Source: Candidatus Parcubacteria bacterium (lineage in GTDB: Bacteria; Patescibacteriota; Patescibacteriia; CAIXNZ01). Taken from it: a DNA stretch of 12,208 bases. The DNA is taken from NCBI GenBank assembly GCA_026395755.1, contig JAPLYC010000095.1, forward strand, positions 1 through 12,208. Reading direction: 5' to 3'. This document shows, piece by piece, positions 307 to 819 of this stretch; positions within the stretch are counted from its first letter, which is position 1, and each line of letters opens with the position of its first letter. A program made the position numbers and the translations under genes. The notes under the pieces are model-generated. The model was not told the origin of the DNA, made no database searches, and was given only the letters and a program-made list of their open reading frames with translations.

Positions 307-378
307 GCCGCCATCGTCTAATGGTTAGGACGCTAGGTTCTTCCGCCAAAGGCGGACCCGCCTCTGGCGGGCATCCTG
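307..378 (+). pseudogene. tRNA-Glu-derived repeat copy A: tRNA positions 1-34 (acceptor 5' strand, D arm, 5' anticodon stem) + 30-nt double-hairpin insert + anticodon 3' side; T arm and 3' acceptor strand absent
   Basis: Residues 307-340 are identical, apart from one C>T, to the first 34 nt of the intact tRNA-Glu at 748-819. A 30-nt insert follows (ttccgccaaaggcggacccgcctctggcggg; two hairpins TCCGCC-AAAG-GCGGA and CCCGCC-TCT-GGCGGG), then catcctg, matching the 3' anticodon stem. There is no T arm, so the copy cannot fold as a functional tRNA. Confidence 0.6.
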
Positions 379-388
379 TTTCCCAAAT

Positions 389-643
389 ATGTACTATTTA
401 TATATTTTACAAAGCTTAAAAGATAATGGATATTATATAGGGATATCTGATAATCCCGAAAAGAGATTGACGGAACATAATAGTGGTAAAACGAAATCAA
501 CAAAAAGTCGTATTCCTTTTACTTTAAAGTATCAAGAATCATATAATACTAAAATTGAAGCAAGAAAGAGGGAAATAATATTAAAGAAAAATTATTATAT
601 AAGAAAGGAATTATTAAATAGTATTGGATTCAATTTGAAATGA
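389..643 (+). CDS. small GIY-YIG (URI-domain) nuclease family protein, 84 aa
   Basis: The ORF starts MYYLYILQSLKDNGYYIGISDNPEKRLTEHNSG..., the classic GIY-YIG motif pair (YxYIL...GxxYIG...RLxEHN). Its ~80-aa size is typical of standalone GIY-YIG/UPF0213 proteins. It lies exactly between the two 72-bp tRNA-derived direct repeats. Confidence 0.85.
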   Translation: MYYLYILQSLKDNGYYIGISDNPEKRLTEHNSGKTKSTKSRIPFTLKYQESYNTKIEARKREIILKKNYYIRKELLNSIGFNLK

Positions 644-655
644 AGAATAAATCCT

Positions 656-727
656 GCCGCCATCGTCTAATGGTTAGGACGCCAGGTTCTTCCGCCAAAG
701 GCGGACCCGCCTCTGGCGGGCATCCTG
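656..727 (+). pseudogene. tRNA-Glu-derived repeat copy B (same architecture as copy A; 71/72 identical)
   Basis: Direct repeat of 307-378 with a single mismatch (gacgcCagg vs gacgcTagg). It ends with catcctg then taat, which continues the tRNA variable-loop sequence for 4 more nt before diverging. Copy B is itself immediately preceded by an isolated 'atcctg' at 651-656. Confidence 0.6.
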
Positions 728-747
728 TAATTTAAAAATAAAATTTC

Positions 748-819
748 GCCGCCATCGTCTAATGGTTAGGACGCCAGGTTCTCATCCTGGTAATAGGGGT
801 CCGATTCCCCTTGGCGGTA
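748..819 (+). tRNA. tRNA-Glu (anticodon CUC), 72 nt, no encoded CCA
   Basis: Manual cloverleaf: acceptor GCCGCCA/TGGCGGT (6 Watson-Crick pairs plus G-U); D arm GTCT-AATGGTTA-GGAC (the TCGTCTAxTGGTTAGGAC signature typical of tRNA-Glu); anticodon arm CCAGG-TTCTCAT-CCTGG with U33 and anticodon CTC; variable loop TAAT; T arm AGGGG-TCCGATT-CCCCT; discriminator A. Confidence 0.8.

Follow-up and report, generated by a model that had tools for sequence, protein, structure and literature searches.

A GIY-YIG nuclease gene among hairpin-bearing tRNA-Glu fragments: a candidate hairpin-directed cassette nested in a bacterial tRNA gene

The DNA analysed here (the window) is the 12,208-nucleotide (nt) contig JAPLYC010000095.1, from a metagenome-assembled genome of a Candidatus Parcubacteria bacterium. 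At positions 307–819, a gene for an 84-amino-acid (aa) GIY-YIG nuclease is found between two truncated copies of the transfer RNA (tRNA) gene for glutamate, tRNA-Glu, each broken in the anticodon loop by a 30-nt double hairpin, and the intact tRNA-Glu gene follows. Arguing in part by analogy with known systems, and with confidence a little above even, I propose that this region corresponds to two tandem copies of a hairpin-directed nuclease cassette, nested in the tRNA-Glu gene in such a manner that the tRNA would be restored. The architecture appears to be real, widespread and undescribed.

Organization of the tRNA-Glu locus

A repeat search of the window identified a 79-nt direct repeat (301–379 and 650–728, 96% identity), and a third, partial copy of 42 nt (741–782) that is the start of the intact tRNA-Glu. 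An original prediction, made from the letters of this DNA alone, had proposed that near-identical repeats at 307–378 and 656–727 flank an 84-aa GIY-YIG open reading frame (ORF), that they end short of the T arm, and that the intact tRNA lies 20 nt past the second copy. Base-by-base reading (Table 1) confirms all of this, with 42 as the last tRNA position in the copies. The insert had also been placed correctly, between tRNA positions 35 and 36, but the tRNA part preceding it spans positions 1–35, and not 1–34 as had been stated. Only the intact gene scores as a tRNA, as had been expected: ARAGORN reports one tRNA in the whole 12.2-kb window, and with Rfam, at an expectation value (E) ≤1, the tRNA model matches the window at 748–819 only, leaving copies A and B unscored.

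The nuclease ORF has a double hairpin on either side. In copy A, the CC of the short arm (tRNA positions 39–40) is able to pair with GG (30–31), closing the junction, and the 72-nt copies fold stably (z about −2.3). The window contains five copies of the motif CCGCC-N3-GGCGG, where shuffles predict 0.2. Unit 1 (307–655) includes the ORF, and unit 2 (656–747) does not. Since ORF-less mini-units and tandem arrays are found at other loci (see below), the region 307–819 is read as two tandem units, then the tRNA. The two repeats are therefore the heads of two tandem units, and not the two ends of one element, as had initially been suggested.

Table 1. Features of the cassette region in the window, and positions of in-frame hairpins at other loci (tRNA positions are those of tRNA-Glu).
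Feature	Position	Strand	Details
Copy A long arm	307–341	+	tRNA-Glu 1–35; mismatch T334 vs C at tRNA position 28; blastn-short 97%
Copy A double hairpin, 30 nt	342–371	+	TCCGCCAAAGGCGGA + CCCGCCTCTGGCGGG
Copy A hairpin 1	342–356	+	TCCGCC AAA GGCGGA
Copy A hairpin 2	357–371	+	CCCGCC TCT GGCGGG
Copy A short arm	372–378	+	CATCCTG = tRNA positions 36–42
GIY-YIG nuclease gene, 84 aa	389–643	+	Pfam GIY-YIG, E=1.5e-13
Copy B long arm	656–690	+	tRNA-Glu 1–35, no mismatch to intact tRNA
Copy B double hairpin, 30 nt	691–720	+	Same sequence as copy A hairpin
Copy B short arm	721–727	+	CATCCTG = tRNA positions 36–42
AT-rich spacer, 20 nt, of ORF-less unit 2	728–747	+	Base-by-base reading
Intact tRNA-Glu(CUC)	748–819	+	ARAGORN 748–820; Rfam tRNA 61.1 bits; cloverleaf fold z=−3.3
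In-frame hairpin examples, other loci	L128 12026; L202 8509; L086 1381; L150 2888; L094 2736		

The spacer of unit 2 was considered as a remnant of the 3' end of the ORF, and this was rejected, as 362 of 1000 shuffles align equally well. A conserved N-terminal extension of the ORF through the hairpin was also rejected, with the ATG of the D-loop (321) in a different frame from that of the ORF (389). No sigma-70 promoter passed the scan upstream of copy A, and the single terminator-like call is hairpin 2 itself, with a weak T tail.

The cassette recurs at tRNA genes across bacterial phyla

Relatives of the nuclease were gathered with a 12-sequence alignment from one genome per species (596 Gb), yielding 439 relatives, with 79 loci kept. 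The census set, which includes the window, comprises 84 non-redundant loci at which a relative of the ORF is encoded (loci are labeled L hereafter). In 78 of these 84, a tRNA gene is present on the same strand within 170 nt of the nuclease ORF; it is tRNA-Glu in 61 of the 78, and Arg, Thr, Pro, Ser or Met in the remainder. A double hairpin adjoins the ORF in 61 of the 84 loci. The hosts span Patescibacteria, Bacteroidota, Margulisbacteria, WOR-3 and other phyla, and the Bacteroidota with a cassette include isolates of Marivirga tractuosa (CP159478), Sphingobacterium, Polaribacter and Litoribacter. As dozens of independent assemblies, including those of isolates, share this layout, an assembly artefact is ruled out.

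In the close homologues, the order from 5' to 3' is the 5' part of tRNA-Glu, the same 30-nt insert, CAT and the 3' strand of the anticodon stem, ∼10 nt, the ORF, ∼7–15 nt, and an intact tRNA-Glu. The broken upstream copies stop exactly at position 35. Their sequence usually matches that of the local tRNA at 100%, with the same anticodon (TTTT beside a UUC tRNA, TTCT beside a CUC tRNA); at L004, the copy also shares the anticodon-stem variant of the local tRNA (CATGG/CCATG). The break in the tRNA-Glu anticodon loop is always at 35/36 (62 instances), and no partial tRNA-Glu copy running uninterrupted across 35/36 was seen, against these 62 with a hairpin. The short arm is variable in length between loci, from 36–40 to 36–56. 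A search of related genomes had been suggested with the original prediction, and the GIY-YIG gene, the tRNA-Glu repeats and the hairpin are found together in them, as one unit at the anticodon loop.

An insert in an anticodon loop, and partial-tRNA direct repeats flanking a gene, are both features that intron-containing or split tRNA genes, or the attL/attR scars of an integrase-driven island, would also show. I nonetheless regard these explanations as scarcely credible. I deleted the hairpin from 213 collected double-hairpin instances and ran ARAGORN again; a single tRNA was restored in this way, from a tRNA-Leu copy in L130, and the copies in the window, on which ARAGORN and Rfam are silent, stop at position 42. 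The 349-nt unit contains the 84-aa GIY-YIG ORF only, and no integrase. Integrase scars usually duplicate the 3' part of a tRNA, whereas here the duplicated part is the 5' part. Intron, split tRNA and integrase scar are thus refuted within the reach of the tools used (ARAGORN, Rfam, hairpin deletion and ORF content), in agreement with the initial view that the copies are not intron-containing tRNAs.

At L003, a gene for a large serine recombinase (3431–4771, minus strand) is located directly downstream of the tRNA-Glu of the cassette; a second, unrelated mobile element appears to be present at this tRNA-Glu locus.

Tandem arrays and ORF-less units

Tandem copies of the ORF, from two to five, are found in nine loci, and are mostly 100% identical. 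The identical units include the hairpin. The outer copies are more damaged: in the window, copy A has one mismatch and copy B none, and the outermost copies in L004/L005, L007 and L056 possess extra hairpin insertions in the D-loop or T-loop. The number of units differs between loci, with two in L004 and one in both L005 and L006. In L007, three ORF-less units of 146 nt are located downstream of the tRNA, each consisting of the hairpin, tRNA positions 36–73 and the terminator, and similar ORF-less units are present in L009, L025 and L030.

A second kind of insert, consisting of CYTG and one hairpin (19–20 nt), was observed in the D-loop (GGTTAG^GAC) of outer, older tRNA-Glu copies (L007 1420–1440, L009 1808–1828, L017 1416–1436, L047 1258–1279, and L016/L067). 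On the opposite strand it reads GTC-N-hairpin-CAGG, which recalls the motif layout of the Ssn family discussed below.

The double hairpin is conserved as a structure and follows the nuclease clade

Alignment A3 comprises 45 distinct inserts whose loops measure 3 nt, chosen for having 11 or more of the 12 pairs. Both 6-bp helices are 99.6% paired, which follows in part from that choice; the compensatory changes do not. Compensatory double changes number 21, 13 and 7 at pairs of hairpin 1, and 13, 16, 18, 5 and 1 at pairs of hairpin 2. The observed covariation score was reached by none of 500 shuffles, and slid registers collapse. An alternative fold as one long hairpin was rejected, with one of its pairs open in 23 of the 45 sequences. 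Selection acts on the structure of the hairpins.

The insert consensus is U-C-N-N-C-C, loop, G-G-N-N-G-A, then Y-C-N-N-C-C, loop, G-G-N-N-G-R, followed by CAUCC. This last stretch (CATCC in the DNA) is kept in 44–45 of the 45 inserts, while the positions beyond it decay. Similarly, the two anticodon-stem pairs nearest to the insert (GG/CC) are kept in 44–45 of 45, and pairing fades outward. The conserved object is therefore a short closing stem with two hairpins.

Other clades possess other hairpins at other tRNA loops. In a neighbour-joining tree, the nucleases group by target tRNA (Glu, Arg, Thr, Pro, Ser, Met), by junction (35/36, 22/23, 26/27, 55/56) and by hairpin type, even within the Bacteroidota. 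In Marivirga and its relatives the ORF is found downstream of tRNA-Glu, past the tRNA's own terminator, and the same double hairpin is 3' of the ORF, in the T-loop junction GGGTTC^GATTCC, followed by tRNA positions 56–73; five such units are repeated, one per 383 nt. A 20-nt palindrome, CCTGCCTGCCGGCAGGCAGG, is present in the D-loop of tRNA-Arg, Pro or Met copies in other clades. In the tRNA-Ser cassettes, a double hairpin separates the second anticodon base from the third, and in the tRNA-Thr cassettes a hairpin replaces the anticodon arm. In L020 (1293–1353 and 1748–1802) and L019, the anticodon arm of tRNA-Thr(GGU) is swapped for TCCCGC-CTTG-GCGGGA, which is of the same size, with no splitting insert.

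These observations bear on a possible role at the RNA level, in which the truncated tRNA and its hairpins would act as a leader, decoy or processing signal for the nuclease mRNA or the downstream tRNA. The copies share the strand of the tRNA and the ORF, their fold is stable, and the hairpin pairs include a few G-U on the sense strand and almost no A-C, all of which is compatible with such a role. However, copies without T arm and 3' acceptor strand offer RNase P and RNase Z nothing to recognise, and have no Rfam match. Because the hairpin of the T-loop clade is 3' of the ORF, beyond the tRNA terminator, the hairpin is tied to the tRNA junction and not to an mRNA leader. The hairpin is also found in frame inside many coding genes (see below), and SsnA, a possible analogue of the nuclease, is inactive on RNA (PMC11893778). 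An RNA-level role is therefore very improbable, and with it the earlier suggestion that the repeats are decoys or processing substrates.

A minimal GIY-YIG domain

In an alignment of 30 homologues of the nuclease, the catalytic residues (Y5, Y16, G18, R26, H30, N31 and E62) are invariant. A profile search of the PDB sequences identified the UPF0213 proteins 1ywl (E=2.4e-11) and 1zg2 (E=3.8e-11), and weakly Slx1. No NCBIfam family matches the nuclease, and PHROGs gave a weak match only; among plasmid records, a tblastn search found only relatives of the YazA type. An AlphaFold model of the 84-aa protein was obtained with a predicted local distance difference test (pLDDT) score of 93.8. Its top Foldseek matches are 1zg2 (UPF0213 protein BH0048), then the Slx1 structures 7cq2, 6seh and 4xlg, with template modelling (TM) scores of 0.67–0.70, and a root-mean-square deviation of 2–2.7 Å to two chains of 6seh (the Slx1 nuclease domain). 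The match to I-TevI is poorer (TM 0.42–0.46, E>0.2). As judged from the sequence profile and the predicted fold, the protein is a minimal Slx1/UPF0213-like GIY-YIG domain, with no DNA-binding domain. This minimal group has been filed as prokaryotic Slx1 homologues, mostly vertically inherited (Dunin-Horkawicz et al. 2006, PMC1564403).

For the homologues P0009, P0011, P0014 and P0015, gene callers set the start too far upstream, so that the ORF takes in part of the tRNA copy as well as the hairpin (MVRTxGFSAxGGxAxGG...). Such extensions correspond to spurious proteins of 105–107 aa in public databases.

The double hairpin is dispersed outside tRNA genes

The pattern TCCGCC-N3-GGCGGA-YCCGCC-N3-GGCGGR was used to scan metagenomes, giving at least 120 loci (L086–L205, 769 kb). 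Among the matches listed, ∼120 of 125 instances have neither a tRNA-Glu context nor a nuclease gene nearby. Their typical flanks are TTT to the left and AAA to the right; a minority of the instances are within a longer closing stem. The proportion located in long open frames (73%) is close to that of random positions (77%), and the in-frame reading, SAxGGSAxGG(K), is found within GyrB-, RecG-, DnaE-, UvrC- and CCA-adding-enzyme-like proteins (examples in Table 1). The 30-nt double hairpin is a member of a dispersed family of palindromic mini-insertions. The original prediction had mentioned a generic REP-like element as a possible outcome, and this is true of the 30-nt hairpin, but not of the 72-nt repeat or of the link to the nuclease.

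Two hairpin-selected loci show the double hairpin in partial copies of other tRNAs, with no ORF. In L161 (3250–3420), it is in the D-loop of a 5' fragment of tRNA-Val, before the intact gene, and L130 (2380–2830) has two 3' parts of tRNA-Leu(UAA) located behind the intact gene, with the double hairpin in the anticodon loop of each. In L121, a tRNA-Arg cassette of the 20-nt palindrome type (5985–6400) is found 3.7 kb from an in-frame double hairpin of the CCGCC type (9973–10002); both types can therefore coexist in one genome. In the window, the fifth CCGCC-N3-GGCGG copy is a solitary 15-nt hairpin, TCCGCC-TTT-GGCGGA (3447–3461), half of a double hairpin. It is located in a 55-nt gap between an ORF that resembles an acidic coiled coil (2365–3441) and a vault-like ORF (3497–6757, plus strand, 1086 aa; matches to the Pfam major vault protein domains MVP_shoulder, at 1.3e-16, Vault_3 and Vault_2) that is unusual for a Parcubacteria contig.

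The abundance of the hairpin away from nuclease and tRNA-Glu, and its presence in other tRNA loops as in L161 and L130, could mean that the events at tRNA-Glu were independent: ordinary duplications would leave dead tRNA-Glu fragments by a resident GIY-YIG gene, and a generic mobile hairpin would later hit their anticodon loops, these being a preferred target, and insertion in the live tRNA being lethal. The variable length of the short arm is also compatible with this. However, hairpin-free partial copies across 35/36 would then be expected next to the 62 with a hairpin, and none are seen; the hairpin is inside the identical tandem units; and hairpin type goes with nuclease clade. In addition, the nuclease of this rare family is present in two among the at least 120 hairpin-selected loci (769 kb), one of these being L142, a tRNA-Ser cassette. 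The chance expectation for this is far below 0.01, based on 439 relatives in 596 Gb, where 439 is a lower bound. I therefore consider independent events to be quite improbable.

Comparison with known systems

The closest working analogue, judged by architecture, is the Ssn family. SsnA is a 94-aa single-domain GIY-YIG protein that binds the NTS/SRM hairpin repeat as single-stranded DNA (ssDNA) only, and not as double-stranded DNA (dsDNA) or RNA, and cuts a few nt upstream of it (Chenal et al. 2025, PMC11893778). Its gene lies between such repeats (NTS-ssnA-NTS), which number in the hundreds, and Ssn homologues show co-varying nuclease and hairpin specificities (PMC11893778). The likeness to the cassette includes the ∼90-aa single domain, with the SsnA catalytic residues Y6, Y17 and E64 placed much like Y5, Y16 and E62 of the window protein, a gene flanked by cognate hairpins, a hairpin kind that is also dispersed at other sites, and co-variation of nuclease and hairpin between lineages. 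However, the 30-nt double hairpin does not fit the SRM consensus (HGTCWY...RNCYNB), and this consensus is found at none of the tRNA-Glu double hairpins. The cassette also differs in its position inside a tRNA gene, where tRNA halves are duplicated and the intact tRNA is read as restored; tRNA is not mentioned in PMC11893778, and the literature searched contained no link between Ssn and tRNA genes. Dispersed hairpins are mostly in coding genes here, whereas NTS repeats rarely are (2%, PMC11893778). The likeness to the Ssn domain family cd10448 is one of architecture, and the nearest solved or annotated relatives in sequence are UPF0213/YazA.

At L081 (671–735), two canonical NTS/SRM-like hairpins are present in inverted orientation (TGTCATTCCCGCGAAGGCGGGAATC and its partner), ∼750 nt upstream of the GIY-YIG cassette. 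In the 269 kb scanned, no other clear trace of the published Ssn motif was seen close to nucleases of this family.

By sequence (E about 1e-11) and fold, the protein is closest to YazA, YhbQ, 1ywl and 1zg2, which are also GIY-YIG domains alone; for the Slx1/UPF0213 group, no link to tRNA genes or hairpin repeats is described (PMC1564403). A different precedent is SegB, whose cuts within tRNA genes, at a T-loop-like motif, lead to tandem amplification that depends on recombination (PMC13096335; PMC2330249). As in the cassette, a GIY-YIG gene adjoins tRNA genes, and SegB amplifies a unit of gene and tRNA. In contrast, it acts on dsDNA and is found in phages, without a hairpin module or the replacement of half a tRNA. 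SegB possesses a DNA-binding part besides its catalytic domain; compared to I-TevI and the Seg enzymes, the window protein lacks a C-terminal DNA-binding domain, and is 84 aa in all.

SegB is nonetheless the precedent for reading the cassette as a case of classical homing, where the dsDNA of the intact tRNA-Glu anticodon region would be cut in cassette-free genomes, and repair of the double-strand break would copy the unit in, with the hairpin as a disruptor, an insulator or a passenger. The breakpoint is fixed at 35/36, in one locus (L056) even without hairpin, and the tRNA-Glu anticodon arm GGTTCTCATCC resembles the T-loop junction of the sister clade, GGTTC^GATTCC. Still, I judge classical homing to be unlikely. 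The 84-aa protein has no DNA-binding domain, and in its fold it resembles Slx1/UPF0213 more than I-TevI. If the hairpins were mere disruptors, two of 6 bp would not be retained through dozens of compensatory changes across phyla, and the restored tRNA would stay a target of the enzyme. The homing enzyme of the original prediction therefore gives way to a bare Slx1/UPF0213-like catalytic domain.

Enzyme genes flanked by hairpin repeats that are also scattered in the genome, and are recognised as folded ssDNA, are known from the REP/RAYT and IS200/IS605 systems. Their enzymes are HUH tyrosine transposases, and neither tRNA nesting nor target restoration is involved. In contrast, the sole ORF associated with the cassette encodes a GIY-YIG protein, and there is no HUH (Y1) transposase. 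The same parallel is drawn for SsnA in the discussion of PMC11893778.

Rickettsia palindromic elements are short mobile palindromes, inserted in frame, which the in-frame 30-nt hairpins resemble by analogy. The hairpins can also be likened to the fungal mitochondrial double-hairpin elements, short GC-rich mobile sequences with two hairpins that occur between genes as well as within RNA or protein genes, according to the account of Paquin et al. cited in PMC10085805. Both kinds of element differ from the window cassette in host and sequence, and, as far as that account goes for the fungal elements, no duplication of tRNA halves is described. Neither kind is known to have a dedicated nuclease gene.

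Some mobile, free-standing endonuclease ORFs of mitochondria, such as that of Allomyces atp6, insert in an essential gene, supply a substitute segment and leave the old remnant behind. Unlike the window cassette, they target protein-coding organelle genes, with larger endonucleases and no hairpin module.

Full-text literature searches turned up no description of a nuclease and hairpin nested in a tRNA gene in this way, in line with the initial impression that the architecture was undescribed. Two features go beyond what is known for Ssn and Seg: the cassette sits within a tRNA gene whose function it would restore, and its double hairpin of 30 nt also occurs dispersed, in frame.

A model for the cassette

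A model for the hairpin-directed nuclease cassette can be proposed from these data. The full unit would consist, in order, of the 30-nt double hairpin, the short arm (36–42), the nuclease gene and a replacement for tRNA positions 1–35. It would enter the anticodon loop between positions 35 and 36, leaving the old 5' half stranded upstream, with a hairpin at its end, and the intact downstream tRNA would be rebuilt from the unit-borne 1–35 and the resident 3' half (36–72). By analogy with Ssn, the nuclease may recognise the folded hairpins in ssDNA and cut beside them at the tRNA loop. The break would be repaired by homologous recombination, with the tRNA-derived arms acting as portable homology. 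Recombination would copy the unit into tRNA-Glu genes, or add units out of register to give tandem arrays; it may also delete the ORF, resulting in mini-units such as 656–747, and between two 1–35 repeats it would excise the unit precisely. The 30-nt hairpin module found elsewhere has possibly been moved in trans.

This last step can be taken further, if only tentatively. The nuclease and the double hairpin may constitute a new mobile system, which would seed the hairpin in trans into tRNA loops, and into housekeeping genes as in-frame 10-codon insertions, across genomes of Patescibacteria and other phyla. The arms flanking the hairpin could be the homology or guide that sets the site of cutting and copying, which would account for the way the cassette has changed targets among Glu, Ser, Arg, Thr and Pro tRNAs, and among loops.

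A number of observations weigh against the nested, hairpin-directed cassette or its extension. No pair of filled and empty sites was found among the close relatives searched, and as the neighbouring PEP-utilising gene has a best homologue of only 54% identity in the protein collection searched, there is no near-isogenic comparison for the window. The difference in unit number between L004 and L005 may be due to assembly collapse. The restored tRNA retains the presumed target sequence, so that self-immunity is unaccounted for. In L056, two 5' halves end at position 35 without a hairpin, which is therefore not strictly needed for the 35/36 breakpoint. In ∼269 kb around nuclease genes, all 80 double hairpins have a tRNA-derived context (62 in the anticodon loop, 9 in the T-loop and 9 variants) and none is dispersed; a link between nuclease and dispersed hairpin within the same genome is therefore only putative. 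The nuclease and the hairpin-in-tRNA-Glu pattern are both absent from the IMG/VR viral contigs searched, and there is no known vector for spread of the cassette between phyla. Finally, the SRM consensus of Ssn is all but absent, with 4 matches in the 269 kb, against 0–2 in shuffles, and with YazA/UPF0213-type proteins as the closest annotated relatives, membership in Ssn is putative.

Implications

If the proposed model is correct, a gene of ∼250 nt can live inside an essential tRNA gene that is conserved universally, by carrying a spare half of its target; the host would keep a working tRNA, and the old half would be left as a hairpin-capped stump. A class of truncated tRNA pieces and tandem repeats beside tRNA-Glu genes, troublesome for both annotation and assembly, would be accounted for by the cassette. 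The diverged pairs of nuclease and hairpin would constitute a natural resource, of the kind proposed for ssDNA tools by the work on Ssn. The model would also tie a nuclease to 30-nt insertions that add SAxGGSAxGG loops to GyrB, RecG, DnaE and UvrC in small-genome bacteria, and would provide a natural role, and a target in tRNA-gene loops, for the minimal GIY-YIG proteins of bacteria, a large and little-understood group that includes both UPF0213/Slx1-like and Ssn-like members.

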